The notes: generated by a model not told the origin, from the letters alone. A stretch of DNA of 64,000 nucleotides from Psilocybe cubensis (GCA_017499595.2 CM039004.1:62001-126000); one strand, 5' to 3'; positions 2,653-55,020 are shown, counted from the stretch's first letter. Numbers and translations: made by a program.

Positions 2653-2654
2653 GT

Positions 2655-5105
2655 CGACAACAAGAAGAAAGGGAAGGGGAGAGCTCCCGTCAAGAACGAT
2701 CCAAAGGGAAAGGGAAAGGCAAGAGCCTAAACGCGCGGTTTTCTGTTGCACCATTTACGTCGGTGAGACCCGCTTTCCCCAACTCTATTCCTGACGATAT
2801 ACTCACCATGACTAAAACAGACGCAGTTTCTTTTGTACACTTACATACGCCGATCTCATTCTTGTTGGCTGGCCAGTATCGTAGTAGTGTACATTGTAGT
2901 CCTGGTGTGGTGGTCCCTGTAGATATAGCAAACGATTTGTCGCTCGGACTTAATTATATGTTTTTTACTCTGCCTTCTCAAAGTCTGATCATGCAAGCAT
3001 GGAATGATTTTCAACGAAGAATAAGATGGCGTATCTATTTTTTGTTTAAGGAAGGCATGAATAAACCTTTTGATCCAGATTATGGAGTAAGTTCTAAGAA
3101 AAAAGAAAAACCTCCTGTATTACCGCAATTTATGGAACTTGGCCTTTCGATGGGACGTCGGTACGTGCAACGCACGATCGCAAGTATCCCGGAAGAAGCC
3201 CTTACGGAGATGCGAAAGCACGTGTTCTCTCCTAAAAGGGACAAGATCCGTAAGTTTCTTATCGATAACAACTATGTTATTACGATGACAGATAAGAATC
3301 TTGGCCTCGCGGTGTCTGAACGCAACTGGATATTAAGGAATGAGCTCAATCTTCTTGAAGATGAACGTAATTACGAAGAGTTAGAATTCGAAGTTGCGCA
3401 AGAAGTAATGAAGAGCAAAATGATCCAGATGCAAACTCTCGCACGTACCGTCGAAGATGAACATCTGTTTCTTTATGAACTTGGCTTAGCTCGATTTTTT
3501 CTATCAAATGTACCGGAAGACGGATCATCGTTCAAGTATCCTCAATTTCATGGTATACCTAAAATCCATAAGAAACCTACTGGATTTAGGCCCATAATTC
3601 CGTGTCATTCTGTAGTATTTAATCCTGCAGCCAAGTTTGTATCAAAAGAGCTTAAGCCGATTATTAAATCGACTCCTTCAATCATACACGGAACGAAGGA
3701 TCTCTTTACGAGATTAAGCCAATTGCGTATAGACTCCAAAAGACAATGGTATTTTGTCACTGGAGATGTAGTTGCTTTCTATCCCAATATCCCGTTGGAC
3801 TCGTGCATCGAAATCGTTTGTAGTATGTACGAGGAATGGTTACTCAACACTTCGGAAGAAAACACTGCATTAGCCCATATTAAACCAAATTCGTTAGAAA
3901 ATAACTTGATTAAATTGGGCATCTTTAAACGTGCTATCGAGATTGGCAATACGCAATTGATAACACAACATGGGTCTAGATATTTTAGACAAAAAAATGG
4001 CCTCGCAATGGGCGTCGCGGACTCTCCGGACCTTGCTAACCTCTTTGGAGCCCATTTTGAAATAAAGTCAAAAATCTTAGACCACCCGAATGTGGACTTC
4101 TATGGAAGGTACATCGACGATTGTTTCGCAATTGTTTACGCCAAGTCCGAAGCACTTGCACTTAATTTAATTAAAGAAACAATAAAGTTCGATGGTTGTG
4201 TTATCGAATGGGTTGTTTCCTCGTCGGGATGTCAATTTCTCGATGCTTTCATATTCAAGGAGTCTGGAAAACTTCATTGGAAGCCATTTGTCAAGACAGG
4301 AAACAACCGAGAACGAGTTCCATGGGTATCACATCATCCTTTGGACGTCAAACGTGGCGTCTACATTGGAGAGTTATCCAGGTTAGCCGTGCTATGTAGT
4401 ACCAAGGAAATCTACATCGGAGCAATTAGAGACCTTAACGCTCTCTATTTGATGCGCGGTTATCCCGAAAACCTAGTCATGTCTTGGTGTAAGAAGAATA
4501 TACAAGAACGTTGGGAAAAGCGATTCGCTTTACGAGTCGCAGAGCACGACGAATCCATTCTTGTACTTAAAACCAGGTTTGATCAGGTATGGAATTGGTT
4601 TTCAGCTGCTGAACTTGGAAAGACTGTTACCGAGTACTGGTCGGCATGGTATGAACATGCCGAGAAAGGTCTGTATAGTGCAGACTCGTCCAGACCCCTT
4701 ATCAAACCAGATCCAAATTACGTTCACGACCTCGATGATGTTCGCCCGGAGCTGTTCACACAGATCCTCGTGGACGGAGAAACTGAGTTCGTACCGGATT
4801 TGAGGAAGATAGGACTACTCGGAAGTCGTTGGATAGTATCGCGAAAACGCAATACTAATCTTTTCGACCTTGCAAATGTGTGGAAGAAAACAGTCTTTCG
4901 TAAACTGGATGAAGACATTGCTGAAAAAGGTGGTGTTGTTCCCGAAACTCAAAACGTTAATGAAACTTATCATTCTGCTTTAGTTGAAGCTGCTGAACAG
5001 ATAAGTATCGAAAGTGATAACGAGATAATACTTCATAGACGTTCAATCTCACAAGAGAGGGAACATCCAGAATTCGGCAGAATATCCAAATCTTACAACC
5101 GATGA
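2655..5105 (+). CDS. Penelope-like reverse transcriptase, intact frame but 5'-truncated, no endonuclease
   Basis: Motifs LSLGLNY, TDKNLGL, FHGIPKIHK, GDVVAFYPNIP, GLAMG, RYIDD, FLD and SHHP. The frame is open from the truncation point (ORF track starts it at 2763). Confidence 0.92.
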   Translation, partial: RQQEEREGESSRQERSKGKGKGKSLNARFSVAPFTSVRPAFPNSIPDDILTMTKTDAVSFVHLHTPISFLLAGQYRSSVHCSPGVVVPVDIANDLSLGLNYMFFTLPSQSLIMQAWNDFQRRIRWRIYFLFKEGMNKPFDPDYGVSSKKKEKPPVLPQFMELGLSMGRRYVQRTIASIPEEALTEMRKHVFSPKRDKIRKFLIDNNYVITMTDKNLGLAVSERNWILRNELNLLEDERNYEELEFEVAQEVMKSKMIQMQTLARTVEDEHLFLYELGLARFFLSNVPEDGSSFKYPQFHGIPKIHKKPTGFRPIIPCHSVVFNPAAKFVSKELKPIIKSTPSIIHGTKDLFTRLSQLRIDSKRQWYFVTGDVVAFYPNIPLDSCIEIVCSMYEEWLLNTSEENTALAHIKPNSLENNLIKLGIFKRAIEIGNTQLITQHGSRYFRQKNGLAMGVADSPDLANLFGAHFEIKSKILDHPNVDFYGRYIDDCFAIVYAKSEALALNLIKETIKFDGCVIEWVVSSSGCQFLDAFIFKESGKLHWKPFVKTGNNRERVPWVSHHPLDVKRGVYIGELSRLAVLCSTKEIYIGAIRDLNALYLMRGYPENLVMSWCKKNIQERWEKRFALRVAEHDESILVLKTRFDQVWNWFSAAELGKTVTEYWSAWYEHAEKGLYSADSSRPLIKPDPNYVHDLDDVRPELFTQILVDGETEFVPDLRKIGLLGSRWIVSRKRNTNLFDLANVWKKTVFRKLDEDIAEKGGVVPETQNVNETYHSALVEAAEQISIESDNEIILHRRSISQEREHPEFGRISKSYNR

Positions 5106-5139
5106 AAAGAATACTAGCGCGTAAGGCGTAAAGCATTAG

Positions 5140-5279
5140 AAAAAAACCCTAACCGTAAGTATTCCTTGCTACAAAGTAACAAACATCTACTTACAAGCAA
5201 CACATTGGATTAAATAGCTAAACCTAAACCTAAACCCTAAACCCTAAGCCCTAAGCCCTAACCTAACCCCAACCCTAAG
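5140..5279 (+). repeat. Internal degenerate telomere-like tract of element B, interrupted by a putative 63-nt intron (5155-5217)
   Basis: AAAAAAACCCTAACC|GTAAGT...TTAAATAG|CTAAACCTAAACCTAAACCCTAAACCCTAAGCCCTAAG. Confidence 0.8.
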
Positions 5280-5814
5280 CTAACTAAGTCTAACCTTAGT
5301 AGGAAGTAAGGTAGGCGTGTGAACTTCCGAACGGCATGTGATTGTGAAGGGCCGGATCTAATTTAGTACATGGGAAAAGTTACTTAGTACTTCGGGAAAA
5401 GTTCCTTAGTACCGTGGAAACATTTTTAATGGACCGGATCATGAACTGTCCAATTAAGATTCACAACAATCAATCAATTGATTGTTAGGTAAGGACCCAG
5501 GTAAGCTATTTATACTCTTGACATGAGAATATTCCCATGTCGCGGTTACTTGGAGCCACGTAACCAGAGTACTCTATATCCATGTGATTTACATCACAGT
5601 CAATAACCCACGATGTCAAAGAACAAAAGTGTTGGATCCACTTTTGACAGGTTACCATGTGCCACATCGACCCGTGACACTCTGTTCATCAGAGACCTGT
5701 CTAACTTGACAATAAACATTGACAGATTTGTGATAGTCGGTAAGATACATGACAGCTGCGCAGCTTCACTTCACGCGCTGTCATCGGATGTTCCAGAACA
5801 TTCCTTCTAAGAAT

Positions 5815-5879
5815 AGCCACTGAAGAGTCTATAAAGACGAAAGGGCTGGCTGCTGATAACAATCAACAGCCCTCTGGCT
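5815..5879 (+). ncRNA. Type I hammerhead ribozyme (element B terminal repeat), intact core
   Basis: Stem I AGCCA/TGGCT, core CTGAAGA, stem II GTCT-ATAA-AGAC, GAAA, stem III GGGCTG/CAGCCC, UH = TC at 5873-5874. Confidence 0.93.
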
Positions 5880-5909
5880 TCTTTCCATTTAACTCACAGT
5901 TTAAAACAA

Positions 5910-5944
5910 GTCGCTCGCACCTCGCTTCGCTCGGTGCTCGCTCC
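5910..5944 (-). other. GAA-triloop hairpin with three tandem GA/GA mismatches on the minus strand
   Basis: Minus strand reads G GA GC GA GCACC GA GC GAA GC GA GGTGC GA GC GA C. Copies at 41006-41040 and ~45417-45451. Confidence 0.75.
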
Positions 5945-5946
5945 CA

Positions 5947-5989
5947 CCCTAAACCCTAAACCCTAAACCCTAAAACATAACTAAACCCT
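5947..5989 (+). repeat. Buried telomeric tract (CCCTAAA)4 plus degenerate units; probable former chromosome end
   Basis: Direct reading. Lies exactly at the 3' end of element B. Confidence 0.85.
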
Positions 5990-6184
5990 TGTTGCCTTAC
6001 ATGTACAAGCCATTCCGAGACTGCCAGGCAGAGGTGGTGTTGCAGAGTGCCGATGTTAACGCAGGACAGGTGGGCGAGAAAAGGTGTGGATGAAGAGGGT
6101 GTCAGAGTGACATTCGTGAGTGTCATTGCAATACAACCCGATTGATTAACTCACCTAAGAAACTCATCGTCGCTGTCATTTACG

Positions 6185-26976: not shown

Positions 26977-27029
26977 TCATTGATACTCGGAAACGAACGG
27001 CTATTGATAAGCGTTCTGGATATGATTTA

Positions 27030-30000
27030 ATGAATCCACCAACAAGAGATACTCTTGCTGCAAAGAGCACTGCTATCTGTGAGGGATTAAAGACGGACGC
27101 AGGGATAGATCAGGACAAACAGAGAAGATCGGCCATGGCAAAGGAACAACATCTGCGATCACAGGTCGAACCAGAGCGTGCAAAACAGTTGGTAGCAGCG
27201 ATTAATGAGCAAATCAGCAACATTCAATTTCAGCAGAAGCTATTGCGCATGGACAAAGAAATGAAAGAGAAATATCGAGATCGCTTTCCTGACCGCCTAC
27301 CAGACAACGTAGATATTCCTGATCACATATATCACCGGATACGATTGGTGGACAAAGACAAGATACATGCGGGTCGAGGATACGCTGCTCCAAAGAAATA
27401 TCACGATGCATGGAAGAAGCTTCTTGACGAGCATCTGGCCGCGGGACGTATCCGACCATCCTCATCTGAATATGCATCGCCAGCATTCTGCATTCCAAAG
27501 TATAAAAACGGAGTACCTGACCTGTCAGTACCACCACGATGGGTAAACGATTATCGGGAGATCAATAAGAACACTATATCTGACAAATTTCCACTTCCAC
27601 GAGTAGATGACATTCTTGCAGACTGTGGAAAAGGCAAATTCTTTGCAAAATTAGACATGACCAACAGTTTCTTCCAAACACGAGTACACCCAGACGACAT
27701 TCACTTGACAGCTGTGCGTACACCATGGGGCCTATACGAATGGGTTGTGATGCCAATGGGCGGGAAGAATGCGCCAGCTACACATCAACGGCGAATGACA
27801 GATGCATTACGGGAACTCATTGCACAAGTATGTCACGTCTATCTAGACGATATTGTGATCTGGGCAGACACCTTGGAACAACTATCAGAACGAGTAGAAA
27901 AGGTCTTGAAAGCGCTTCGGAAAGCGGGACTTTATTGTAATGCGAAGAAATCAGTCCTTTTTGCAACTGAAATTATCTTTCTGGGACATGTTATTTCCGC
28001 AAACGGCATTCACGCAGACCCTGCAAAGACAGACCGAATCAAGAAATGGCCACGACCAACAAACGCAACAAATGTACGTGGATTTCTAGGACTCACAAGA
28101 TATCTGGCTGTCTTTCTCCCTGCGCTCGCGGAACATACTAGCATCTTATCACCACTGACAAGCAAAGAATGCGATCGCGACTTCCCCAAATGGACCGCCG
28201 ATCATGATCGAGCCTTTAACGCAATCAAGGAACTGGTTACAGGGGCGGAATGCCTCACTGTCATTGATTACGATGACCCTGAAGGGAAGATCTACGTGAC
28301 AACAGATGCAAGCGATAGGCGAACAGGTGCAGTCTTGAGTTTTGGAAAAGATTGGGAATCAGCAAGACCAGTTGCATACGATTCATATCAGCTGAAAGAC
28401 GCAGAAAAGAACTATCCAACACACGAAAAAGAACTCCTGGCAATTGTGAAAGCATTGAAAAAGTGGCGCAGCAGTCTTTTAGGGGTCAAATTTGAAGTCT
28501 ACACTGACCACCGAACATTGGAATATTTTCAGGCGCAGAAAGAGATGTCACGTCGGCAGATGAGATGGTCGATGTACATGGCAGATTTCGATTTCGAGAT
28601 ATGTTACATCCGAGGGGAGGAAAATGTAGCAGCAGATGCCCTATCAAGGATGCCGGACGAAGAGCCAAATTCAAGATTTGCAGCCTGTGCATTGGCCTAT
28701 ACACGGAACCCTAATCGCGCCCCAAGAGGATTTGTGGGATCAGTGTTATCTATTGAAATTGACCAGGAGTTTGTACAGGCAATAAAGGATGGGTATGATG
28801 CCGATCCGTTTGTTAAGCAATTTCGAGATGGAATGCAAAAGCACAGTCTAACAGGAGCACGAGAAGAAGAAGGGCTGATTTATCTTGGACAAAGACTAGT
28901 AATCCCAAACGATAGGAAGATCCGAGAACGACTGTATTATCTGGCTCACGATGTTTTGGGTCATTTTGGATTTGACAAATCGTATGAAGCATTACACGGG
29001 TCGTACTACTGGCCTAACATGCGAAGAGATCTCGAAAAGGCATATATTCCTTCGTGCACGGAATGTCAGCGAAACAAAGACCGAACAACCAAACCTACAG
29101 GACCACTTCACCCACTTCCTGTCCCAGACAAACGACTCACGTCAGTTGCATTGGACTTTATTGGACCATTGCCCGAGGAGAAGGAACGCGACACAATACT
29201 CACGATGACTTGCCGTTTAGGTACTGATATACAACTGATTGCAACTCACTCCTCATGGACCACAGAACAAATTGCGCACAAAGTTGTTGACCACTGGATT
29301 TGCGAAAATGGATTGATGGAAGAATTAATCTGTGATCGCGACACAATCTTTACATCAGATCTATGGACTGCAATATGCAAGATTTTGAATGTAAAGATCA
29401 AGATGTCGACCGCCTATCATCCAGAAACCGATGGAGCGAGCGAGAGAACAAATAAAACCGTCAATCAAGCAATACGATACTATGTGGATAGAAACCAAAA
29501 AGGCTGGTTAGACAAGCTCCCTCGCATTCGGTTCGCAATGATGAACACAGTAAATGCATCGACAGGATACTCGGGTTTCCAACTGAAGACAGGTCGATCT
29601 CCACGGATTATTCCTACAATGGCAAAGGCAAACAAGGATGCACCAATGGTGGAAACATCAGCAAGAGAGATCATTCGGAAAATTGAGATCGATGTGAAGG
29701 AAGCGCAGGATGCCTTACATACAGCCAAGATCCGACAAGCAGCTCAGGCAAATGAGCAGCGAGGTAACGAGATCGTGTACCAACCAGGCGATATGGTAAT
29801 GCTCTCTACAAAGAACCGGCGACGCAACTACAAACGGAAGGGGAAGAAAAGGGTGGCAAAGTTCATGCCACGGTTTGATGGACCGTACGTTGTAGAGGCT
29901 GCCTTCCCCGAACGATCAGAATATACACTGAGGTTACCAAACAACCCAAAGACGTTCCCGGGGTTCCATGCCAGCCTTTTAAAACCATTCGTGCCGAATG

Positions 30001-30248
30001 ATCCAGAGAAATTTCCGGACAGAGAATTGGTACGACCACCAACAGTGATAACCGAGGACGGGGTGGAAGAGACAGTGATAGAGAAAATTGTGGATGCGAG
30101 AAAACGTGGTAGAGGGATGCAATATCTGGTACGATGGGCTGGATTTGGGAAGGAGCATGATGAGTGGCTTCCAGGGCGTATGCTTGAAGAGAATGAAGCA
30201 CTGGATAGATGGGAAGAGGAAGAGGCCGAGGACAAAGAAGACGAATAA
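27030..30248 (+). CDS. pol: Pol: RT, RNase H, integrase, chromodomain
   Basis: RT YLDD, RNase H TDAS and YTDH, integrase HHCC (H..GH..C..C) and D..D..E core, GPY motif, chromodomain YLVRWAGFGKEHDEW. Confidence 0.95.
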   Translation: MNPPTRDTLAAKSTAICEGLKTDAGIDQDKQRRSAMAKEQHLRSQVEPERAKQLVAAINEQISNIQFQQKLLRMDKEMKEKYRDRFPDRLPDNVDIPDHIYHRIRLVDKDKIHAGRGYAAPKKYHDAWKKLLDEHLAAGRIRPSSSEYASPAFCIPKYKNGVPDLSVPPRWVNDYREINKNTISDKFPLPRVDDILADCGKGKFFAKLDMTNSFFQTRVHPDDIHLTAVRTPWGLYEWVVMPMGGKNAPATHQRRMTDALRELIAQVCHVYLDDIVIWADTLEQLSERVEKVLKALRKAGLYCNAKKSVLFATEIIFLGHVISANGIHADPAKTDRIKKWPRPTNATNVRGFLGLTRYLAVFLPALAEHTSILSPLTSKECDRDFPKWTADHDRAFNAIKELVTGAECLTVIDYDDPEGKIYVTTDASDRRTGAVLSFGKDWESARPVAYDSYQLKDAEKNYPTHEKELLAIVKALKKWRSSLLGVKFEVYTDHRTLEYFQAQKEMSRRQMRWSMYMADFDFEICYIRGEENVAADALSRMPDEEPNSRFAACALAYTRNPNRAPRGFVGSVLSIEIDQEFVQAIKDGYDADPFVKQFRDGMQKHSLTGAREEEGLIYLGQRLVIPNDRKIRERLYYLAHDVLGHFGFDKSYEALHGSYYWPNMRRDLEKAYIPSCTECQRNKDRTTKPTGPLHPLPVPDKRLTSVALDFIGPLPEEKERDTILTMTCRLGTDIQLIATHSSWTTEQIAHKVVDHWICENGLMEELICDRDTIFTSDLWTAICKILNVKIKMSTAYHPETDGASERTNKTVNQAIRYYVDRNQKGWLDKLPRIRFAMMNTVNASTGYSGFQLKTGRSPRIIPTMAKANKDAPMVETSAREIIRKIEIDVKEAQDALHTAKIRQAAQANEQRGNEIVYQPGDMVMLSTKNRRRNYKRKGKKRVAKFMPRFDGPYVVEAAFPERSEYTLRLPNNPKTFPGFHASLLKPFVPNDPEKFPDRELVRPPTVITEDGVEETVIEKIVDARKRGRGMQYLVRWAGFGKEHDEWLPGRMLEENEALDRWEEEEAEDKEDE

Positions 30249-30300
30249 CGCCATAGAGAACAGACCCTTTCACGATGGAATTCTTCAGAGGGGGGAGGGG

Positions 30301-30599
30301 TGTAAGCCTGGAGACTTACCACACACGCAAACACGCACCGCAGGCGGACGCGCACAACAAAACGGCGCACAAACGCGAGCCCAGATTGGGTCTCGCTAAT
30401 CAACTTACAAAGATATTGAGACCGAAAGACAAAAGGGAAACAAATGACCTTCGTTGCTTGACTAGAACGCTACGCAACGAAGGTAAATATATTATAGTAA
30501 TTTACTACACATCATGTATAGACTAGAACGCTACGCAACGAAGAGAGCGTTGTCCCTTCTGTTTCAGCGAGTGAGGCTGCCGATCCCGACAGCCTTCCA
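30301..30599 (+). repeat. 3' LTR
   Basis: Copy of 24959-25257, preceded by the PPT and followed by the TSD. Confidence 0.95.
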
Positions 30600-39744: not shown

Positions 39745-40375
39745 CGGGGGTGACGGCGCAATGACACGCAGCAGAATGCATGTCGTGGTGGACGGCGAGT
39801 GGACGCGACGGCGGGACGGCAGCCGGCGAGGGAAGACGGCGCGGCGGCAGCAACAGGTGTTGAGTGGAGGCGGCAGCAGCAGCAGCGGCCCGGAGGTGGC
39901 AGCGCGACGACACGCAGCGGCGAGCGAAGGCGTCGGGCAGGTGGCGAGCACAAGTGTCGGGATGGCAAGCGCAAGCGTCGGGAACAGGCAGGAGGCCGGC
40001 CTCCACTTGCACGTACGACGCGCATACAAATCGAGGCTGGCCTCAGGTGGCCTCGACGCGTTTATTTTAAGACGGAGGCCGGCCTCCAGTGCCTGTCAAA
40101 ATTTATTTTTAGTCGGAGGCCGGCCTCCAGTGCCTGTCAAAAGTTATTTTTAGACGGAGGCCGGCCTCCAGTGGCCTCCATCAATTTGGAGGCCGGCCTC
40201 CATAAATTACATATTTAATTATGTAGCACCTCCGTATGTACAAAATAAATTATTTTAAAAGTGGATTTGGGGGTTTTCGGGGTTGAGGAATCCGAATCTG
40301 GCATCAGATTTCCAGAATTCTAAACAGGAGGCGCAATGCAACGAAGGCCCCCCCTTTGGGGGGGAATAAGCTTAG
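39745..40375 (+). mobile_element. Element X terminal block, copy X3 (more diverged; left boundary approximate)
   Basis: Five GGAGGCCGGCCTCC palindromes, hairpin and AATAAGCTTAG end, joined to the terminal repeat of PLE C. Confidence 0.8.
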
Positions 40376-40910
40376 CTAACTAAGTCTAACCTTAGTAGGA
40401 AGTAAGGTAGGCGTGTGAACTTCCGAACGGCATGTGATTGTGAAGGGCCGGATCTAATTTAGTACATGGGAAAAGTTACTTAGTACTTCGGGAAAAGTTC
40501 CTTAGTACCGTGGAAACATTTTTGATGGACCGGATCATGAACTGTCCAATTAAGATTCACAACAATCAATCAACTGATTGTTAGGTAAGGACCCAGGTAA
40601 GCTATTTATACTCTAGACATGTGAATATTCCCATGTCACGGTTACTCGGAGCCACGTAACCAGAGTACGCTATATCCATGTGATTCACATCACAGTCAAT
40701 AACCCACGATGTCAAAAGAACAAAAGTGTTGGATCCACTTTTGACAGGTTACCATGTGCCACATCGACCCGTGACACTCTGTTCATCAGAAACCTGTCTA
40801 ACTTGACAATAAACATTGACAGATTTGTGATAGTTGGTAAGATACATGACAGCTGCGCAGCATCACTTCACGCGCTGTCATCGGATGTCTAGAACATTCC
40901 TTCTAAGAAT

Positions 40911-40974
40911 AGCCACTGAAGAGTCTATAAAGACAAAAGGGCTGGTTGTGAACAACAGTTCACAGTCCTCTGGC
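40911..40974 (+). ncRNA. Hammerhead ribozyme, mutated core (GAAA to AAAA)
   Basis: AGCCA CTGAAGA GTCT-ATAA-AGAC AAAA GGGCTG...CAGTCC TC TGGC. Confidence 0.8.
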
Positions 40975-41081
40975 CTTCTTTCCATTTAACTCACAGTTTA
41001 AACAAGTCGCTCGCACCTCGCTTCGCTCGGTGCTCGCTCCCACCCTAAACCCCTCAACTTTGCTATTACCCAACAGCTACT

Positions 41082-42237
41082 ATGTCTTCCACCTACTCTG
41101 CTGCATTCTCTCGTGCCATGTCCCCCACCCTGGACGCACTCACCCAGGCTGTCGTCAACAATACAGTCTTTGGCGTCAACGACGAAGCTGGCCGCCACAA
41201 CGCCCTCATCGACGAGTTAGCCACTGTCGTCATCAAAAAAATAGCTGAGTGCCGCTCCATTGACCAGATCATAGACTGCGTCTTTTTTGACTATTGTGCT
41301 GCCCTTAGGGAGTTTCTCCTCAACCTCGCATCGTGGTGCGACAAGAGGGAAACAGTCAAGGCAAGCCTCGAGCGCCTTGAACTTGCCGTCAGTGCAGGCA
41401 ACACCCCCAATCGCCTTCGGGTGAAGGCTCCCGAGTTCCAACTCACGAAGGAATTCGCGGATGCCGGGTCAGCGGAGGCTCTTCGAGTCTCCTCTACGTT
41501 CTCCACCACTCGTGACGTCTTCCAAAAGGCGATCAACGACGGCGCCATCCAGGCGAAAAAGGACGAACTGGCCTTTTGGGATGATAAATGCGCACTCAAT
41601 AACTGTTATGAAGCTGCTGCCCTCATTGTTAAGACAACTTACGATGATCGCAAATCCAGCTATAAGCTCCCCGTTTTCTCTACAGACAACAAGGGAGTTC
41701 GTCGAATAACAGATTGGGTAGTGTCACCGCAGAAGAAGGCTGAATGCAGCGCATTGCAAACTATTTTGCCAGCCATCTTCTCTCATATCAAACAGATTGT
41801 CAACTTGCGCCACCGCGCTTTGGCAATCAAGATTGAGAAAAAGCGGTCGACTGCGGCAACAGCCGATGTCGAGATGGCCGACGCGACCAAACCAGGTCCG
41901 TCGATTCAATCCCTTATTGATAAGGGCTTGAATGCACGTCTCAAAAAGCTCAACCTTGGATCTGTGGGCAAGAAGGCAAGTTTTCGTAACCCTTCACCCA
42001 TAATTTTGGATACTAATTACTACTCTAATTATCCAGACTTTGTCTGGCCAGAATTCGTCCAAGGCTCCTCAACCTCAGGCCAAGAAAGCTGGCCCTTCAA
42101 AATTCAAACCCTTGTCGACACCTTCGCAGAAGAAGCCCCAAACCAAGGTTTCCAACAAGGTCGACAACAAGAAGAAAGGGAAGAGGAGAGCTCCCGTCAA
42201 GAACAATCCAAAGGGAAAGGGAGAGGCAAGAGCCTAG
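41082..42237 (+). CDS. PLE ORF1 (predicted 364 aa if the GC-AG intron 41976-42036 is spliced), with a basic C-terminal tail
   Basis: ATG 41082, AAG|GCAAGT donor, CTAAT branch, CCAG acceptor. Exon 2 reads TLSGQNSSK...KKKGKRRAPVK...ARA*. The stop position is conserved in copy B (TAA 2727-2729). Confidence 0.65.
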
Positions 42238-44609
42238 ACGCGCGGTCTAATGTAGTATCACTTACGTCGGTAAGACCCGCCTTCCCCAACTCTATTCCTG
42301 ACGATATACTCACCATGACTAAAACAGACGCAGTTTCTTTCGTACACTTACATACTCCAATATCATTCTTGTTGGCTGGCCAGTATCGTAGTAGTGTACA
42401 TTGTAGTCCTGGTGTTTCTGTCCCTGTTAATGTAGCAAACGATCTCTCTCTCGGACTTAATTATATGTTTTTCACTCTGCCTTCTAAAAGTCTGATCATG
42501 CAAGCATGGAATGATTTTCAACGAAGAATAAGATGGCGTATCTATTTTTTGTTTAAAGAAGGCATGAATAAACCTTTTGATCCAGATTATGGAGTAAGTT
42601 CTAAGAAAAAAGAAAAACCTCCTGTATTACCGCAATTTATGGAACTTGGCCTTTCGATGGGACGTCGGTACGTGCAACGCACGATCGCAAGTATCCCGGA
42701 AGAAGCCCTTACGGAGATGCGAAAGCACGCGTTCTCTCCTAAAAGGGACAAGATCTGTAAGTTTCTTATCGATAACAACTATGTTATTACGATGACAGAT
42801 AAGAATCTTGGCCTCGCGGTGTCTGAACGCGACTGGATACTAAGGAATGAGCTCAATCTTCTTGAAGATGAATGTAACTATGAAGAGTTAGAATTCGAAG
42901 TTGCGCAAGAAGTTATGAAGAGCAAAATGATTCAGATGCAAACTCTCGCACGTACCGTCGAAGATGAACATCTGTTTCTATTTGAACTTGGGTTATCTCG
43001 ATTCTTTCTATCGAATGTACCGGAAGACGGATCATTGTTCAAGTATCCTCAATTTCATGGTATACCTAAAATCCACAAGAAACCTACTGGATTTAGGCCC
43101 ATAATTCCGTGTCACTCTGTAGTTTTTAATCCTGCAGCCAAGTTTGTATCAAAAGAGCTTAAGCCGATTATTAAATCGACTCCTTCAATCATTCACGGAA
43201 CAAAGGATCTCTTTACGAGATTAAGCCAATTGCGTATAGACTCCAAAAGACAATGGTATTTTGTCACTGGAGATGTAGTTGCTTTCTATCCCAATATCCC
43301 GTTGGACTTGTGCATCGAAATCGTTTGTAGTATGTACGAGGAATGGTTACTCAACACTTCGGAAGAAAATACTGCATTAGCCCATATTAAACCAAATTCG
43401 TTAGAAAATAACTTGATTAAATTGGGCATCTTTAAACGTGCCATCGAGATTGGCAATACGCAATTGATAACACAACATGGGTCTAGATATTTTAGACAAA
43501 AAAATGGCCTCGCAATGGGCGTCGCGGATTCTCCGGACCTTGCTAACCTCTTTGGAGCCCATTTTGAAATAAAGTCAAAAATCTTAGACCACCCGAATGT
43601 GGACTTCTATGGAAGGTACATTGACAATTGTTTCGCAATTGTTTACGCCGAGTCCGAAGCACTTGCACTTAATCTTATTAAAGAAACAATAAAGTTCGAT
43701 GGTTGTGTTATCGAATGGGCTGTTTCCTCGTCGGGATGTCAATTTCTCGATGCTTTTATATTCAAGGAGTCTGGAAAACTTCATTGGAAGCCATTTGTCA
43801 AGACAGGAAACAACCGAGAATGAGTTCCATGGGTATCACATCATCCTTTGGACGTCAAACGTGGCGTCTACATTGGAGAGTTATCCAGGTTAGCCGTGCT
43901 ATGTAGTACCAAGGAAATCTACATCGGAGCAATTAGAGACCTTAACGCTCTCTATTTGATGCGCGGTTATCCCGAAAACCTAGTCATGTCTTGGTGTAAG
44001 AAGAATATACAAGAACGTTGGGAAAAGCGATTTGCTTTACGAGTCGCAGAGCACGACGAATCCATTCTTGTACTTAAAACCAGGTTTGATCAGGTATGGA
44101 ATTGGTTTTCAGCTGCTGAACTTGGAAAGACTATTACCGAGTACTGGTTGGCATGGTATGAACATGCCGAGAAAGGTCTGTATAGTGCAGACTCGTCCAG
44201 ACCCCTTATCAAACCAGATCCAAATTACGTTCACGACCTCGATGATGTCCGCCCGGAGCTGTTCACACAGATCCTCGTGGACGGAGAAACTGAGTTCGTA
44301 CCGGATTTGAGGAAGATAGGACTACTCGGAAGTCGTTGGATAGTATCGCAAAAACGCAATACTAATCTTTTCGACCTTGCAAATGTGTGGAAGAAAACAG
44401 TTTTTTGTAAACTGGATGAAGACATTGCTGAAAAAGGTGGTGTTGTTCCCGAAACTCAAAACGTCAATGAAACTTATCATTCTGCTCTAGTTGAAGCTGC
44501 TGAACAGATAAGTATCGAAAGTGATAACGAGATAATACTTCATAGACGTTCAATCTCACAAGAGAGGGAACATCCAGAATTTGGCAGAATATCCAAATCT
44601 TACAACTGA
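41082..44609 (+). pseudogene. ORF1-RT read-through frame of PLE C, disrupted
   Basis: Single frame from 41082. Relative to copy B it has CGA to TGA at 43821-43823 and catalytic YIDD changed to YIDN. Confidence 0.88.
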
Positions 44610-44646
44610 TGAAAAGAATACTAGCGCGTAAGGCGTAAAGCATTAG

Positions 44647-44786
44647 AAAAAAACCCTAACCTTAAGTATTCCTTGCTATAAAGTAACAAACATCTACTTA
44701 CAAGCAACACATTGGATTAAATAGCTAAACCTAAACCTAAACCCTAAACCCTAAACCCTAAGCCCTAACCTAACCCCAACCCTAAG
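44647..44786 (+). repeat. Internal telomere-like tract of element C; the putative intron 44662-44724 has a mutated donor (TTAAGT)
   Basis: Homologous to 5140-5279. Confidence 0.78.
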
Positions 44787-45321
44787 CTAACTAAGTCTAA
44801 CCTTAGTAGGAAGTAAGGTAGGCGTGTGAACTTCCGAACGGCATGTGATTGTGAAGGGCCGGATCTAATTTAGTACATGGGAAAAGTTACTTAGTACTTC
44901 GGGAAAAGTTCCTTAGTACCGTGGAAACATTTTTGATGGACCGGATCATGAACTGTCCAATTAAGATTCACAACAATCAATCAACTGATTGTTAGGTAAA
45001 GACCCAGGTAAGCTATTTATACTCTAGACATGTGAATATTCCCATGTCGTGGTTACTCGGAGCCACGTAACCAGAGTACGCTATATCCATGTGATTCACA
45101 TCACAGTCAATAACCCACAATGTCAAAAGAACAAAAGTGTTGGATCCACTTTTGACAGGTTACCATGTGCCACATTGACCCGTGACACTCTGTTCATCAG
45201 AAACCTGTCTAACTTGACAATAAACATTGACAGATTTGTGATAGTTGGTAAGATACATGACAGCTGCGCAGCATCACTTCACGCGCTGTCATCGGATGTC
45301 TAGAACATTCCTTCTAAGAAT

Positions 45322-45385
45322 AGCCACTGAAGAGTCTATAAAGACAAAAGGGCTGGTTGTGAACAACAGTTCACAGTCCTCTGGC
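45322..45385 (+). ncRNA. Hammerhead ribozyme, mutated core (GAAA to AAAA)
   Basis: Same sequence as 40911-40974. Confidence 0.8.
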
Positions 45386-45453
45386 CTTCTTTCCATTTAA
45401 CTCACAGTTTAAACAAGTTGCTCGCACCTCGCTTCGCTTGGTGCTCGCTCCCA

Positions 45454-45490
45454 CCCTAAACCCTAAACCCTAAACCCTAAACCCTAAACC
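45454..45490 (+). repeat. Buried telomere (CCCTAAA)5CC; probable healed break
   Basis: Perfect repeats abut the predicted third exon of the minus-strand zinc-finger gene. Confidence 0.9.
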
Positions 45491-47024
45491 TTGTTGGACG
45501 ACATATTGCTTCTACCGTGTGGGGTTAATATCAGCGTTGTTTTAATGGAAATAAACTCACGATTGATTGAACTGAGCAATATTATGTGTCATCCCGAACG
45601 TATGGTGTTCGTTCACCAGTAGCTGTACACTGGCCAGTGTGCGATGGGCTGCGAGCTGGAGTTGTTTGCCCCATGGCTCGGTCTTGGCGTCTGGTAGCCT
45701 AGTAACCTCCTGGATGTCGACAGGGGTCAACCCTTTCACTGCGTCAAGCCATCCTTCGCGGAAGAGAAACAAGGACAGATTTTGCGGGTCCTCAATGTTT
45801 TGGATGGGCAACTGTGTGTAATCGGGTGGAGGCGGCATTGTTGTTCCAAAAACAGTCGAGTATGCAAAGGGAATGTCCTGGCAAAGTGAGAGGCAAGAGG
45901 TGTCCACTGGAAAATACCGCTTGCTTGGGCCTTTTGTAAGTATCTGCCCGTACATCGTGTAGCAAGCGCGCTGCGTGATAGGCACTTGGCAACGCTGCCC
46001 GTTAGACTGGTGACCCTGCAGGCTCAACAACGAGTTGTAGCCACGGTGGCATTTGGAACAAAAATGGAGCTGATCAGCCTCGATAGGAATCCCAAAAATC
46101 AGACGGATTGGTCCAGCGCTGTAGGCTATCTCAGCCAGCGACACAATCCCGTATTTCCGCCGAAGATCTTCGAGCAATGTGGGGCCTGGTGTATAGTGTG
46201 CATTGTGCTGCTTGACGTGTGCGCACACCAACGCCGGCTCAATCGCTTCCTTACATTCTATGCAGATAACAATCTTGAGAAAAGTGTTGATAACAATTCC
46301 AAGGGCCGGAAGATTGTGCGTGTCGTCGTAGATCATTGTGTGGTCATCGGGTACAATGTCGTAGAGCGAAACATCTACTTCCATCGCAGTGGTGGGCGTG
46401 GCGCAAATAGGCGGTGGCTGATGCATGCCCGGAGGTGGCGGTGTCATCCTCTGCGCAGATACGTTGCGCAGTGGTGCAGGAGAAACGGGCCCAGGTATCA
46501 TCGTTGGGGGCGATCCTGGGCTCGAGACCAACGGACGCGGCGACCCCTGGCTGCTGATAGCGCGCGGGCCAAGAAACGTGCGCGTAGATGGCCAACTTGC
46601 CGCAGGGGTTACCGGCGCAGGAATCATTGTTGGGGGCGATCCTGCCCTCGAGCCCAAGGGACGCGGCGACACTTGCCTGCTGGGAGCGTGCGGGATAAGA
46701 AACAAGCGCGTAGATGGCTGATGAAGCTGTGAAGCGGAAGGTGCGGCTCTTGTAGGAGGTGCAGCTCCCCAAGATGGGCGAGGGAGCTGTGATGAAAACA
46801 TGGGCGCCGGCGACGGTGGAGATAATGATCGCTCGTTGTCTGAGGTCTGCTGGGAAACCTCCAACGATGGTTCTGCGTGTGAATCAGCAAAGTGCCGCTG
46901 TAGTATGGATTTAGCATGAAATATCAAAACACATCGGAAACTAGCTCACCTGTAAACTGTAGGGCGTACTGTACGCCTTGCGGCAGTGTGTGCATGGAAA
47001 TTTCATGTCGGCGTTGCGTGGCAT
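45491..47024 (-). pseudogene. N-terminus of a probable telomere-linked RecQ-helicase (TLH)-type gene (C2H2 finger plus DUF3505/OrsD-like domain), 3'-truncated
   Basis: Exons 47024-46950, 46897-45561 and 45511-45491. Motifs CTHC..AYSTPYSLQ|RHFADSH and IVICIECKEAI..HVKQH...CSKC..Y..LQGH...RYFPV. The helicase domain itself is not in the window, so the family call is inferred. Confidence 0.6.
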
Positions 47025-47095
47025 GACAGTATCGCCTACTGTGACCAATCGCTGGTTGTCTTTTCGCCTTGCACGACCTTCGTGTCCGAGTGGTA

Positions 47096-49849
47096 CCTAC
47101 CATCTTTTTGATAAAACAATAGCAAGTGTTAGCACACTCTTTTTATAACTGTTGATGGTTTTATCACAAAGCAAAATAATGAGAAGACTGGTCTATTTCT
47201 CATAAGTTTACTTCGCTTTTTCAAAGCCTTTTTCATTAGATAATACCCTTCTTTCTCATTATCTTTAGGGCGCTTTTTCATTACCTTTTGATTAGATACT
47301 AGCCTGGTTATTTGATAAGATTGTTCTACATCAATATATCTTATCTTTGCTTGGTCATTTCTGATGCCATGCCATCAAATCAGGAACACTGTGGGTACTT
47401 CTAGGCCATGTCTATCAATCCATCAAAGCTATTATTAAATAAACTTTTCTCTCCTCGGCCCCTTGGTCTATAAATAGTGCTCATCCTATGCTACTTTTGT
47501 GCATTGCTGGCAATGCATTGGGCGCTTTTGGGGGCATTTCTGGACCGTTTCCCTTGGTATTTTTTGGTATACCTATAGTTTTAAGGTGTCCCAATTTGAA
47601 TCTGAAATCAGAATTGCAATATCTTTACTCATTATTGTGCAATTAAGCGTACGATGTTTTGATCAAAAAGCGCACCTTGAATAGCACCATCCAGGGGCTG
47701 GTATGCACCATTTTGACTATGCAATTATTTTTTATTTATAATAGACGGAGTACATGCCAAGTTTCAGATCAATTGGAGCAGTGGAACCTATTGAACTAGC
47801 ATATGCATCCTACCTCTCCTCCTACCCCTTGTATGAATACCTTCCTGATCAGATAAATTCAAGCCTAACTGGGATAAAATAGGAGCTTATTATACCAATT
47901 TTTAGAGCCCAAAATCTTGGTGTAATTCTAAGATTTAAGGGTACTACCCCCCATCCTCTCCAGAATTTGTATATTTTATTATGGGGTAGAATGGCCATTC
48001 CCAGCACATATAGGTATTTAAATCTGCTCTATATAGTACCACAAACGCAATACATATGTTTGAAACATTCTGGATGAAGTAGAACACCTTGGTTATGAGG
48101 CTAATAAGAAGGTATTAGATGTGCAATATAATATGACCATATCACCGCTTATACTTCACCAAAATGCACATATCTTACATTCCCAGATAGCTACCAAAGT
48201 CCTCTACATATTATATTAATGGTGCCAAATAGCCAGAACGCTTAACAAGATGGTACAAGAAGAATAAGCATTATTGTTCAAAAATGGAGGAAAAGCGAAA
48301 TATGATGTGGAAGACAACACTTATAAAATACATAAACTATACGGCTGTGTAGCCCTAAATGACACCTATCTGTGGTATATAGACTCATGGAAATCCGATG
48401 AGTATGAGCTGAGATATGTCAAAATGTATCTCGGAGAAAGGCCAAAGAGGTGACCACAAACAAAGCATAAATAAAGGCCAATATCCATCCGGGTCTCTGA
48501 TGGGTTCTTCAACACCTTTCTTTCCATATCTCAACACCCACTGGTCCGATGCACAACATCCTTAATGTTCTGGAAAGCTACATTTTGGGGCTATACTATC
48601 CTGCTTTTATATTTCCTGATCTTGAATGTTTATATATGGTAAATGCGAAAATACTGTGCATTTTGATGAAGATTGGTATTCTCTCTGCAGTGTCTCATCT
48701 AATGGATGGATCTTTTTGAACCTTGAGAATAATATTTAGTAGGGACCTGTAGGTATTTGTAGACGTCAAGAATATGATTTATGACAATGTATTTGTAGAG
48801 ATATGGCCTGATCAATAACCTACCATACCTATCCTCATACCCCCCCTTAAATCAGTATGTTCCCTTGTTGAAGAGGGCTTTCAAGGGTAAATTTTGGACT
48901 CTATGTACTGTTAGTAGTGGATCTACATGTCTTTCAATGGTCTGAGAGCCCATCCTATCCCATAATAAAATACACAAGTTCTGGAGGGAGTAGGGGGTAG
49001 TACCCTTAAATCTTAAAGTTTCACCAATTTTTTAGGCTTTAAAAATTGGTATAATAAGCGCCTACTTTATTCCAGTTGGGCTTGAATTTATCTGATCAGG
49101 AAGGTATTCATACAAGGGGTAGGAGGAGAGGTAGGATGCATATGCTAGTTCAATAGGTTCCACTGCTCCAATTGATCTGAAACTTGGCATGTACTCTGTC
49201 TATTATAAATAAAAAATAATTGCATAGTCAAAATGGTGCATACCAGCCCCTGGATGGTGCTATTCAAGGTGCGCTTTTTGATCAAAACATCGTACGCTTA
49301 ATTGCACAATAATGAGTAAAGATATTGCAATTCTGATTTCAGATTCAAATTGGGACACCTTAAAACTATAGGTCTACCAAAAAATACCAAGGGAAACGGT
49401 CCAGAAATGCCCCCAAAAGCGCCCAATGCATTGCCAGCAATGCACAAAAGTAGCATAGGATGAGCACTATTTATAGACCAAGGGGCCGAGGAGAGAAAAG
49501 TTTATTTAATAATAGCTTTGATGGATTGATAGACATGGCCTAGAAGTACCCACAGTGTTCCTGATTTGATGGCATGGCATCAGAAATGACCAAGCAAAGA
49601 TAAGATATATTGATGTAGAACAATCTTATCAAATAACCAGGCTAGTATCTAATCAAAAGGTAATGAAAAAGCGCCCTAAAGATAATGAGAAAGAAGGGTA
49701 TTATCTAATGAAAAAGGCTTTGAAAAAGCGAAGTAAACTTATGAGAAATAGACCAGTCTTCTCATTATTTTGCTTTGTGATAAAACCATCAACAGTTATA
49801 AAAAGAGTGTGCTAACACTTGCTATTGTTTTATCATAAAAAGTGGTAGG
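47096..49849. repeat. Long inverted repeat: arms ~47096-47993 and ~48950-49849, spacer ~950 bp, AT-rich
   Basis: Arms are reverse complements with very few mismatches over ~47110-47867 and are more diverged at both edges. No TSD or ORF seen. Confidence 0.92.
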
Positions 49850-50328
49850 GACTAGTGCGTGTCCACCATCGTCTTCTGTTTCCCTCCTGCGTCGCTTCGC
49901 TGGTTCAGATGGATCTGGAATCAAACGGTTAGTACATGTAACCGCTATAAAACACCCTACTGACCTTCCATCCCCGTTTTTTGTTGGAAAATGCTTGGAA
50001 GTTTGGTGTCTGGGTGAGGGAAGGGAACAGGATAGGCCCACAAACAACGCTGGGGGTGGAAGGGGTTTATATCTGAGAACGACGCCCTACGCTCTGCGAT
50101 GGAAGGCGAGAATATTTGCCCTCCAGAAGACGTATAGGGGTGTAAAGAAGAGATCGATAGTTAATTGACTGTCGTTCCGATAAGAGGAAAGGGCTGAATT
50201 AATCAGACGCCTGAGTGCACGACAGTCCGAAGGCGTCCCAATCAAAAATCGCCCCCGACACAATAGACGGCGGCAAGGCGTTGTGCGCAAGCATATTGGG
50301 AGGCCAGGTCGTGTGTAACGCGCACAAA

Positions 50329-51610: not shown

Positions 51611-51739
51611 CCATCTAAGGCCATCGCCATCGTCCCGATCCTTCTTCTCTGCGCCCACAACACATACCTGAAGCGCCGTTCCTCACCGTAAGTGTTCGCG
51701 TTCGTTGCCCACATATGCTTGTTACTTACTCTGCTGCAG

Positions 51740-54700
51740 ATGTCCCAGCAAACCCACGTCGATTGGGCCCAAGGGTCCGCGTTTGTCCAGAAGGGCACCA
51801 TATACGTGTCCCCCAACTGCAAGCGTGTCGTCATCATCCCACCCGCTGAAGTCGACGTCACCAACCCCTTCGAACAAAAGACAACACCAGCAGCACCTCG
51901 GCGACGAGACCTGGATTTAGAGGCCCTCAAGCAGCCAGTGCGCTGGCACGATCAGTACGGATGGATCGCCTTCATACCCTTGGCGCCATCCTTCGTGTCC
52001 TTGCCGTTTAATTTTTTGTGCTGGTCTCCAAAGATTTTGCGCAATAAACCGCACAAGTCTCTGGCCACGTATGAAATGGAGTGGCACAGTGTGAAAGAAT
52101 GGCGCCAATTGGATGAAAACATCACCCTTCTGTGCGAAAAGATCCGCTTATGGTGTCGCGTTCCTGGAACCCCACCTCCTAGCCCCAAAAGCTTCGGTTA
52201 CGATCTCAGGTATAGCTCTGAAGCAGACGCGCAAAGGAGCTTTGAGGCCACCCGAAACGCATTTATCCTGTGGATGGGCTACCTGTCGTATCTCGTCGCC
52301 CAAAGTCGTCGCGAGATCTATTCAAAGCACATCAAGCACGATCCCAAAAGCCCCGTCCCTGCATGGCATGAACGCCTCCGCGCTAAGCATCCTGACATCT
52401 CAGAAGTATGGCTGGATGGCTTGTATCATTCCAACGCGTTTTTGTTTAACGCCAGGACCCCTTGTGTCGGCATGGTCTACAAGTTGAGCAGCACCCACGC
52501 GACACGCCCTCCCATCGAATGGCTTCTGGAACACCATGTTCCAGTGTATTATCCGTGGCGGATGCGGGAAGAGGAGATCTTCCTCACTCATAAAATACTC
52601 AATCTTGAACTTCGCCCCCCCCCCCCGCGCGACTTGTTGGCGGCAACACTTACCGACCTATTCAAGTCGATGGACGTGTCTCTTGCAGCCGCCTTTGCGC
52701 GCAAATTTTTCAATAAATCTCATTCGACGGAGGGCCTCACGATGAAGTCGCTGGGAGATGAGTACTCCACTACTTTGGTGTATTCTATCCTCAGTAACGA
52801 TTTCGCCCACAACTCAGAGGCATTGGATCAGCACATGTCCCAGCCATATGAAGAATTGGAAAAAAAGCTCCAAAAGAGAGACGAGGAACAGCGTCAGCTC
52901 GCCATTGACAGCGCCAACCTGCCTACGCTGCGCATGATCGAACTGGCGAATGAAAACCACAAGTTGCTGACCTCTGTGCACAATGACTGGGACGCTTACT
53001 GGGCTGCAAGGGTGGAAGAACGACGACAGATTCTGGCCAAAGAGACGCCAGAAGCTAGACAGGCTCGGCTGAACCAAGAGAACAACCCATCGGTGGTACG
53101 TAGCAAAGTATTTGTCTGGAAAACGCTGGTGTCCACAGAGGGAGCCAGTGTTTACATGCGCGAACACATCGCAACGTCACAAAACAGCATTGAGGAGGCC
53201 AAACTTCGCCCACACCGCAAGGTCTACAACGGTGTGACAGACAAATGGGATCTCTGTCGAGATTTGGAACCACCAGCCGAGTTGGCAGGCGCATCCGCAA
53301 TGTTGGAGCAGCGCAATCAGGCACAGACAAGGCCTGCTAGAGGCCAGCATCGCCGCGGTAGAGGTGCACGTCCCGCAAAACAACCCAGGCAGCACCCAAA
53401 ACCAGCACCTGCCGAGGAAGAGTGGGAAGGCGAACCCTGGTACAATACCATTGAACCTGACCCCGATGCGCCGGTGGCCTCAACGTCGGCCCTTCCCCCC
53501 GCTTGTGATCCATCCCCGCCCCCTTTGCCTCCTGACATCCCGACACCCTCATCATCGCGAGACAGACCCCGCCGCGCACCCACGACACCCCCTCGCCCCA
53601 CGCTAGGACGGCGCCTGCGCAGTCGCTCGCCAACACCGCCAGAGGTTGCAATGCACTCTCGCCCACAAGCATGTCGTTCCCCAGAAAGCGAGTCGTGGGT
53701 CCAACAGAGCCCCCCTGCCGTCGTCGAAGATTTCGAGATGGAGGAACCAGGCCCATCTGTTGAGGATGAAAATGCGGATGTTGAGATGACCATGGACGCG
53801 CCTGCCACGGATGTTGTGCAACCCCAGCCCATTACACCCGACAACGATATGGTCAGATGCCTGCGCCAATCCTATGGATACCTCCCTGGCACAACGACGA
53901 CAGCCTGCGCCGCGTCAGACTGGGATGAACTTGTCAAAACCTTTGGGTTTACAGAGTTACTTACCCCAGAAGTTGCCCTGGATGCTCAACAACAGATCAA
54001 ACAGTTTTATCTGGCTTGCATTGAACCCACAAGCACAGAAATGCCGGCCGCCCTCTCTGACCTCAACACGCACAGCCTGACATCCCTGTCTCGTCTGCTG
54101 GACCTCTTGCAAATACACCGCCCTCACCAAGATCTTTTTGTTTTTTCAAAACCTCGTTCAGAGGAACACGAGTGGATGTTGGGTGTTGAAACAGCGGAGA
54201 TCGCCCTTTACGTGTGTCGGCTCAGGTTAGAGCACTCCTGGGCTCGCATCGACTCTCTGACAAAAATGCTGCTGGAGAGAGGTGTGCCCTGTCGCACTCT
54301 CATGGGCATTGAAATGTCGGGTCGCTGCTCCACTGTCCAGGAGCCGTACACCCCTCGATCTGTCCGCCCGTCAGCGTATAAATTTGGTGTTGATGACTTT
54401 GAAGCATACCGATTGCAGTGCGAGAACATCATCAAACACCAACACCACGGTCGGGCTGCCTTGCTGAGGGGTGGATTGGTTGGCAGGATAGCCAGTGAAT
54501 ATCTGAGCGTCGACGATGGCCTGGCTGGGCCCTCTAAGGAAATTATTCAGAACCGGCAGGGGTTCATCGTACCAGCTGGCGACACGACTTGGTGTTATTG
54601 CGACGACCAGCTCACGGAAAACGAGCTGTCCATTATATGCGGCACCTACACGCTGTACACAGGTATGTTTTCCTTGTTTATTCTCAATTTTATGCACTAA

Positions 54701-55020
54701 CAACATTTTTCTCAGCTACTAAAGGTCAAATAACAGTAAAATTGTGGTTCCCTCCCCCAAACCTGTGGCAGGTGCCCCCCAGCATGAGCGGATCACAATG
54801 GGTGGAATGGACGCCTGCCAACGAGGCATGGTACCGTGAACGCGTAGAAGACATCCGCACTCGCCAGGCCCAGCCATTGACAAGAGTGCAATGGAAATCA
54901 ATATTGCGCGGCACTCCTCCCAGTAGGAAGCTTCTGGCGGCAGCGTCTCAACAAGCTCAGGCCTTTGTCAACGGGCACGTACCGGTGGTGCCAACTTATC
55001 GAGTTCGCCCAGGGCTGTAG
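51740..55020 (+). CDS. Large hypothetical protein (~1075 aa; exons 51740-54662 and 54716-55020) carried by element X
   Basis: Long open frame with a GT-AG intron at 54663-54715 that is conserved in copy X2. C-terminal motifs RAALLRGG, DDQLTENELSIICGTY, WFP and EAWYRER resemble a repetitive agaricomycete family of unknown function. Confidence 0.8.

Follow-up and report, generated by a model that had tools for sequence, protein, structure and literature searches.

A probable facultative intron at the junction of ORF1 and reverse transcriptase in a Penelope-like element of Psilocybe cubensis

Penelope-like elements (PLEs), which are related to telomerase, stand out among retroelements by keeping introns. 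Endonuclease-deficient PLEs, with the clades Coprina and Athena, were reportedly described by Gladyshev and Arkhipova in 2007. Here, we describe an element that fits this group and occupies positions 40371-45490 (copy A) of a 64,000-nucleotide stretch of Psilocybe cubensis DNA (GCA_017499595.2 CM039004.1:62001-126000; the window, numbered from its first letter). A small intron probably lies in it between the first open reading frame (ORF1) and the reverse transcriptase (RT). In PMC8557442 (Craig et al. 2021) PLEs are said to keep introns, the significance of which is stated to be unknown; the explanations of intron retention considered in PMC3846280 are antisense templates or unspliced sense RNA. 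Coprina elements, among them Coprina-1_Alen, typically have one ORF and Athena elements two (PMC13159263). Where PMC8557442 and PMC13159263 deal with the Coprina layout, they give this one ORF and report no spliced isoform restricted to ORF1 and no dual-coding tail.

The closest functional analogue is the facultative intron of BARE1, a Ty1/Copia long terminal repeat (LTR) retrotransposon of barley, in which removal of 104 nt at the end of gag shifts the frame and yields a Gag-only RNA (Chang et al. 2013, PMC3735527). As BARE1 is presented there, it resembles our element in that one long ORF contains a small intron used alternatively, and in having a spliced near-full-length RNA that encodes the structural protein only and a proposed control of the structural to enzymatic ratio that does not involve ribosomal frameshifting. 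The BARE1 stop codon lies three codons past the splice, whereas our element has a conserved basic tail of 51-99 amino acids overprinted on the linker to the RT. The two also differ in element class, replication mode and host kingdom, and the splicing of BARE1 was shown by experiment (PMC3735527), whereas here it is predicted from sequence. In Arabidopsis, alternative splicing of Ty1/Copia RNA generates the structural-protein RNA shGAG, and the unspliced RNA serves as polyprotein message and template (Oberlin et al. 2017, PMC5580714). Drosophila copia likewise has a splicing-derived structural-protein RNA (as cited in PMC3735527). In shGAG and copia, as these sources describe them, the protease or the greater part of pol is spliced out, with premature termination coupled to the splicing, whereas only 46-76 nt would be removed here (PMC5580714, PMC3735527). 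With gag-pol frameshifting the element shares overlapping frames at the structural/enzymatic junction, the RT frame being -1, but it has no conserved slippery heptamer, and its ORF1 and RT share one genomic frame, the offset coming from the intron. What differs from the known systems is the element class, the long conserved overprinted tail and a possible link to intron retention. The mechanism was not found in the PLE literature that was searched, and an earlier mention of the Coprina intron in Gladyshev and Arkhipova (2007) or Arkhipova et al. (2017) is possible.

We estimate the probability that a facultative intron at the ORF1-RT junction acts as a switch between ORF1 and an ORF1-RT fusion at roughly three in four; the core of this reading has good support from the comparison of relatives. 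With the intron retained, ORF1, the intron and the next ~200 nt would be read in one frame to give an ORF1-RT polyprotein, of ~1175 amino acids in intact relatives. With the intron removed, translation would move to the +1 frame and give ORF1 with a Lys/Arg-rich tail of 51-99 amino acids, and RT would not be made. The ~200 nt past the intron would be dual-coding because they are read in the RT frame in the one case and in the +1 frame in the other. The splicing ratio would set the ratio of ORF1 to RT, as gag:pol frameshifting does elsewhere, and the basic tail may bind nucleic acid. Because RT would be encoded by unspliced RNA only, an RT acting in cis would restrict copying to RNA that carries the intron, and new copies would thereby keep it.

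The layout of the junction in the window (Table 1) agrees with the preliminary description of this DNA on three points. That description had the unspliced frame from ATG 41082 running straight into the RT; this frame spans 913 codons up to the TGA 43821-43823, past which the RT frame continues to 44609. It had also proposed that removal of a 61-nt intron shifts the frame into a Lys-rich tail ending at 42237. Codon 298 closes at 41975 with ...AAG AAG, so that the intron candidate is in phase 0; it starts with GCAAGT, contains CTAAT at 42013-42017 and 42025-42029, and ends in CCAG. Joining 41975 to 42037 in silico gives a product of 364 amino acids, of which the C-terminal 66 are rich in Lys, Ser and Pro, followed by the TAG 42235-42237. 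Finally, the ~200 nt after the intron, which had been described as open in two frames, are free of stops from 42037 to 42237 in both the read-through frame and the +1 frame. The read-through frame encodes a Glu/Arg/Gln-rich linker into the RT over this segment. In silico, leaving the intron in gives the polyprotein and taking it out gives the +1 frame and the structural protein only, both in the window and in all 40 sources compared below.

Table 1. Features of copy A and of the related copy B, in window coordinates.
Feature	Position	Strand	Details
Upstream pseudo-LTR (direct repeat)	40371..41052	+	682 bp; ends in CCCTAAACCCC just ahead of the 5' untranslated region (UTR)
Hammerhead core remnant, CTGAAGAG-stem-CAAAA	40916..40938	+	Repeated at 45327-45349 in the second pseudo-LTR
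ORF1 exon 1	41082..41975	+	298 aa, mainly helical; ends ...GKK
Conserved ORF1 motif ADVEMADATKPGPSIQSLIDK, near the end of exon 1	DVEMAD at 41865-41882	+	
Putative facultative intron	41976..42036	+	AAG/GCAAGT...CCAG/; read-through frame stop-free, encodes ASFRNPSPIILDTNYYSNYP
Putative dual-coding overlap	42037..42237	+	+1 frame is the predicted spliced exon 2; tail end ...NPKGKGEARA
RT part of the read-through polyprotein	42238..44609	+	TDKNLG 42795-42812, PKIHK 43065-43079, YIDN 43617-43628
3' UTR	44610..44781	+	Terminal degenerate telomere-like tract 44725-44781
Downstream pseudo-LTR	44782..45463	+	
(CCCTAAA)n tract, ~5 units, element end	45453..45490	+	
Copy B	2653..5994	+	5'-truncated in the overlap; YIDD, open frame and hammerhead core all intact

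The junction was then compared with its relatives. A search for DNA relatives found 277 in soil metagenomes, of which 80 loci were kept, giving 81 sources with the window included. In 40 of these (39 soil-metagenome loci and the window) the ORF1 motif and TDKNLG stand 200-450 amino acids apart; clustering by RT identity sorts these sources into 25 groups at 80% and eight at 60%. Several of the families appear intact, for instance L006 and L014. The two motifs share one frame in 40/40 sources, with no intervening stop in 39/40. At the protein level, a search with the junction region returned 243 representative proteins at E <= 0.001, and many of them, at 1070-1250 amino acids, contain ORF1, the intron-encoded stretch, the linker and the RT in one piece. 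After ADVEMAD...SIQSLIDKA...K these read-through proteins usually continue with V-S or V-R, which corresponds to in-frame donors of the AAG/GTAAGT type; the window and P. cyanescens have A-S there, corresponding to GCAAGT. A regular-expression count of VS/VR (32 of 34 motif-bearing proteins among 37 representatives) includes false matches inside KAVS and is not used as evidence.

An intron candidate in phase 0 with a length of 1 mod 3 is available in 40/40 sources, these two properties being requirements of the curated pick. The curated introns measure 46-76 nt, and 49-61 nt in 38/40. When donor, branch point and acceptor were scanned without any constraint on frame, the top candidate was still in phase 0 and 1 mod 3 in ~34/40, where chance would give ~1 in 9. 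The acceptor is YAG throughout (40/40), the donor has G at +5 in 36/40 and reads GTRAGT in 21/40, and these signals occupy one position in families with only ~30% ORF1 identity. The conservation of the intron across copies, free of stops in the read-through frame, which the preliminary description had named as a check, is found in all 40 sources. Its description as a GC-AG intron holds for the window, the only source with a GC donor, and does not extend to the others, as the donor is GT in 39/40. The GC donor is best read as a lineage-specific variant of a GT donor.

A Lys-rich open stretch is present in the +1 frame of every source, while the +2 frame lacks one in 39/40; the exception (L075) has 11 Lys in +2 against 23 in +1. 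Across sources the tail is 51-99 amino acids long (66 in the window). Its KGKGK end is conserved across orders, as are Y[IV]PKPGRK-like motifs in many families. Read in the RT frame, the same stretch shows no such conservation. At 42205-42225 of the window, AAAGGGAAAGGGA encodes K-G-K-G in each of the overlapping frames, and AAAGGG/GGGAAA runs occur 19-28 nt ahead of the tail stop in several relatives. These runs are not canonical slippery sites, and the only reading offered for them is the conserved KGKGK end of the tail.

No intron-less junction was seen among 53, namely the 40 sources and 13 further loci with ORF1 and RT matches spanning the junction. Intron-less copies were not selected against in this search because it was seeded on RT motifs. 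Their absence fits a cis preference of the RT, without being proof of it.

Frame openness was evaluated by redrawing the tail codons synonymously, such that the tail protein is kept, and scoring the RT frame. The RT frame is open through the intron and the overlap in 40/40 sources, with synonymous-shuffle P values of 0.000-0.029 per source, and in the window none of 2000 shuffles left it open over the tail. Since P is low in all 40, the read-through frame is actively kept open. A stop-free intron by itself is obtained in 34-84% of intron shuffles across sources, and the window value of 0.43 is unremarkable. It is the relatives, and not the window by itself, that carry the strong evidence.

Substitutions were counted by codon position (1/2/3) in nine independent sister pairs. 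For reference, ORF1 in its own frame gives 85/62/279 (p 3.5e-44), the RT in the RT frame 151/98/454 (p 4.2e-69) and the linker past the tail stop in the RT frame 64/44/107 (p 5.2e-07). In the overlap, the +1 frame gives 55/62/146 (p 2e-13). RT-frame position 3 coincides with tail position 2 and shows no excess there, and therefore the +1 tail evolves as protein. As judged from these substitutions, the tail frame is shown to be selected at the amino-acid level, with the RT frame in the overlap only kept stop-free. The intron in the read-through frame gives 24/17/40 (p 0.006), and on this count it is in part evolving like a coding sequence. Among the contigs listed for a DNA run of the species, a single one bridges the intron; it has no indel, and each of its four substitutions (42006, 42011, 42020 and 42032) leaves the amino acid of the read-through frame unchanged.

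The first alternative to consider is that splicing is constitutive, that RT is made by -1 ribosomal frameshifting from the tail frame and that the unspliced RNA is a copying template only. We regard this as unlikely. It is true that, with the tail frame as reference, the RT frame lies at exactly -1 and that AAAGGGA-type runs close to the tail stop encode KGKG in either frame, and in animal PLEs ORF1 can be split off by a frameshift with a pseudoknot, as noted in PMC8557442. However, a canonical X_XXY_YYZ heptamer (Y = A/T, Z not G) is present in the tail frame of only 3/40 sources, 20/40 have no X_XXY_YYZ heptamer of any kind, and no conserved -1 slippery site was found in the overlap across the 40 sources. 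Frameshifting moreover needs the RT frame to be open only past the slip site, whereas it is open from the donor onwards in 40/40, and the coding periodicity of the intron in the read-through frame equally speaks against an intron that is always removed.

The opposite alternative, for which we likewise see little likelihood, is that no splicing occurs, that a single ORF1-RT polyprotein is made and that a purine-rich composition incidentally leaves the +1 frame open and Lys-rich. The reverse of the shuffle test leaves room for this, as 5-100% of the synonymous shuffles that keep the RT-frame peptide also leave the +1 frame open; Coprina elements are moreover described with one ORF in PMC13159263, and the ORFs called on raw contigs are all of the read-through form. 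A by-product of composition would nevertheless not explain why substitutions in the overlap track the +1 frame rather than the RT frame (55/62/146, p=2e-13), nor why tail motifs are kept across orders. Nor would it account for donor, branch point and YAG acceptor being kept at one position in families that are only ~30% identical in ORF1, with an intron length that is always 1 mod 3. That the tail is reached by programmed +1 frameshifting or other recoding on unspliced RNA is highly improbable: a few sources (e.g. L001, L002 and L004) have a +1 frame that is open from the intron start or further upstream, but 35/40 have a +1 stop inside the intron, in 19/40 the acceptor reads TAG, in frame with +1 and directly ahead of the tail, and the canonical splice signals would have no role. 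Because of these stops and TAG acceptors the tail cannot be entered by a +1 ribosomal shift upstream, and intron removal is the only simple route to it.

Returning to the facultative intron, the splice signals and gene models lend it some further support. The junction in the window has a splice score of 9.0, above all nine control windows of the same element. Annotated models of ~335-400 amino acids end in a Lys-rich tail finishing ...KGKGK..., and models using the tail frame come from Psilocybe, Hypholoma, Trametes, Mycena, Plicaturopsis, Athelia, Phlebopus, Paxillus and Piloderma. Searches with the exon 1 protein of the window and of one relative (L014) for intron-less, cDNA-like ORFs yielded only such tail-bearing gene models.

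A number of observations weigh against the switch. Splice scores of at least 9 are reached by 34/337 control windows inside ORFs, compared with 28/40 junctions, and the junction tops all of its own control windows in just 24/40 sources. The score is crude, and therefore the splice signals alone are suggestive and not decisive. The tail-bearing gene models are predictions, and those of P. cubensis and P. cyanescens splice elsewhere than at the GC donor, a mismatch that may come from gene finders favouring GT donors. ORF calls on raw contigs (ENA, Logan) are all of the unspliced form, with no spliced cDNA-like contig seen among them, and metagenome contigs may be collapsed consensus sequences that hide rare intron-less copies. 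A search of sequencing runs listed no RNA run that contains the stretch. Three runs presumed to be RNA (X1, X5 and X6) have no cover at the intron and no joints, and are silent on expression; X1 gave only two small pieces, 43599-43756 and 43898-44132. A DNA-like run (X2) showed no joints either. The spliced mRNA would have a 3' UTR of ~2.4 kb, which may expose it to nonsense-mediated decay. The reverse frame test is weak, with P values of 0.05-1.0 for +1 openness given the RT-frame peptide, and the open +1 frame of the window is unremarkable (0.52 of shuffles). Finally, copy A is itself inactive because of the premature TGA 43821-43823, the change of YIDD to YIDN and the change of the hammerhead CGAAA to CAAAA in both pseudo-LTRs.

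The AlphaFold model of ORF1 is confident, with a mean pLDDT of 79.6, and has long helices; Foldseek found no match for it in the PDB at E <= 0.001, and no Pfam family was found for ORF1 either. Its nearest matches, with 94% identity, are Psilocybe cubensis proteins annotated as hypothetical. The ORF of copy B gave nothing at E <= 1 in a phmmer search against PDB sequences.

The element is not a LINE-like one (long interspersed nuclear element) with ORF1 and ORF2. Its features instead fit an endonuclease-less PLE of Coprina/Athena type from an agaric fungus. This class assignment is made from the pseudo-LTRs, the telomere-like tracts, the DKN motif, the truncated copies, the hammerhead-like core and the lack of an endonuclease. 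An idea of a DIRS/Ngaro-type element, suggested by the direct repeats, was dropped after the telomeric tracts and the DKN motif had been seen. In their accounts of Coprina and Athena, PMC8557442 and PMC13159263 present several traits that our element shares: the RT has a DKN motif and is not accompanied by an endonuclease, the pseudo-LTRs are direct repeats, telomeric repeats in reverse complement lie at the element ends, 5'-truncated copies stand head-to-tail, the host is a fungus and an intron is kept in genomic copies. A hammerhead-like motif by the repeats would be a further shared trait. In contrast to the chromosome-end location of Coprina and Athena, copy A and copy B are interstitial and lie among other transposons.

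TDKNLG (T572-D573-K574-N575-L576-G577) is invariant in 22 aligned proteins and corresponds to the DKN motif of PLEs as given in PMC13159263. The Pfam RVT_1 match is weak: copy B scores 26.8 bits, and one relative (P0041) reaches 29.7 bits against a cut-off of 29.6. No GIY-YIG endonuclease was found; copy A, copy B and two relatives (P0041 and P0051) gave only RVT_1 in Pfam (E <= 0.01-0.1), and the sole other row in this check was a chance-level SopD at E = 0.095.

The two pseudo-LTRs of 682 bp (40371-41052 and 44782-45463) are 98.8% identical. CCCTAAA tracts are also found at 5948-5975 and 2228-2265, and telomeric tracts of at least three units occur in 12/81 sources. The tracts at 45453-45490, 5948-5975 and 2228-2265 consist mostly of the 7-mer CCCTAAA and not of the 6-mer CCCTAA, which is the usual telomere unit in agarics.

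A scan of the window for hammerhead cores gave three matches, of which that in copy B (5820-5842) has CGAAA and the two in copy A have CAAAA. The same G-to-A change in each pseudo-LTR of copy A fits a single template for both repeats. By motif scan an intact core, CTGANGAG-stem-CGAAA, is present in 45/81 sources, and in the four loci with both features it lies ~100-125 nt ahead of the telomeric repeats. The cores are visible by motif scan and not through Rfam thresholds: the pseudo-LTR of copy A gave a weak Hammerhead_3 hit (E=1.5), and Rfam yielded no hammerhead in the window at its gathering score, none in 40000-45700 at E <= 5 and none in 15 loci at E <= 0.5.

Copy B (2653-5994) aligns to 42160-45496 of copy A with 96.6% identity. 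It reads through the site of the copy A TGA and has YIDD as in the consensus. As had been described, it keeps both frames and the tail stop, a TAA at 2728-2730, one base off the 2729 given earlier. It begins inside the overlap and therefore cannot serve as evidence on the intron. Via CCCTAAAACCCTAACCC, copy B is joined to a diverged element lying upstream, at the end of that element's pseudo-LTR. This third element of like kind, at 2-2647, has a C-terminal RT part that is 54% identical to copy A and an ORF that ends near 1651; copy B is attached to it head-to-tail. It carries the CCCTAAA tract 2228-2265 and a hammerhead-like motif at 2486-2582, which folds into a three-way junction and matches Rfam HH9 with E=0.034 and 19.7 bits, under the gathering score of 52.

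The remainder of the window contains further repeats. Just upstream of copy A, a near-perfect GC-rich palindrome with GGAGGCCGGCCUCC arms (40147-40207) lies within a repeat family that is also found at 19941-20242, 22834-23094 and 56115-56417. A Ty3/Gypsy chromovirus at 24959-30599 encodes protease, RT, RNase H, integrase and a chromodomain, and probably inserted very recently, as its 299-bp LTRs are 100% identical. An inverted repeat of 903 bp (47093-47994 and 48950-49852, 97% identical) surrounds ~950 bp, and a repeat family of ~2.9 kb with internal tandem sub-repeats is present at 20241-23095 and 53742-56418 (85% identical). Two ORFs, at 51692-54700 (1002 amino acids) and at 45557-46945 on the minus strand (462 amino acids), have no Pfam match.

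The position, phase and length class of the intron are conserved in all 25 clusters sampled (80% RT identity), and the intron would separate two products. If it is spliced as proposed, control of the structural to enzymatic ratio by splicing would extend from the Copia elements of plants and insects to a different class of retroelement in fungi, and intron retention would have a testable reason. Many fungal 'hypothetical proteins' of ~335-400 amino acids would then have to be reannotated as the ORF1 isoform, and gene finders that accept GT donors only would mis-model the Psilocybe copies. More tentatively, the intron may be a self-selection device of the whole PLE clade that works through a cis-acting RT, and at the same time may set the ORF1:RT ratio and give access to an overprinted nucleic-acid-binding tail. 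If true, this would be the first functional reason for the retention of introns by PLEs.

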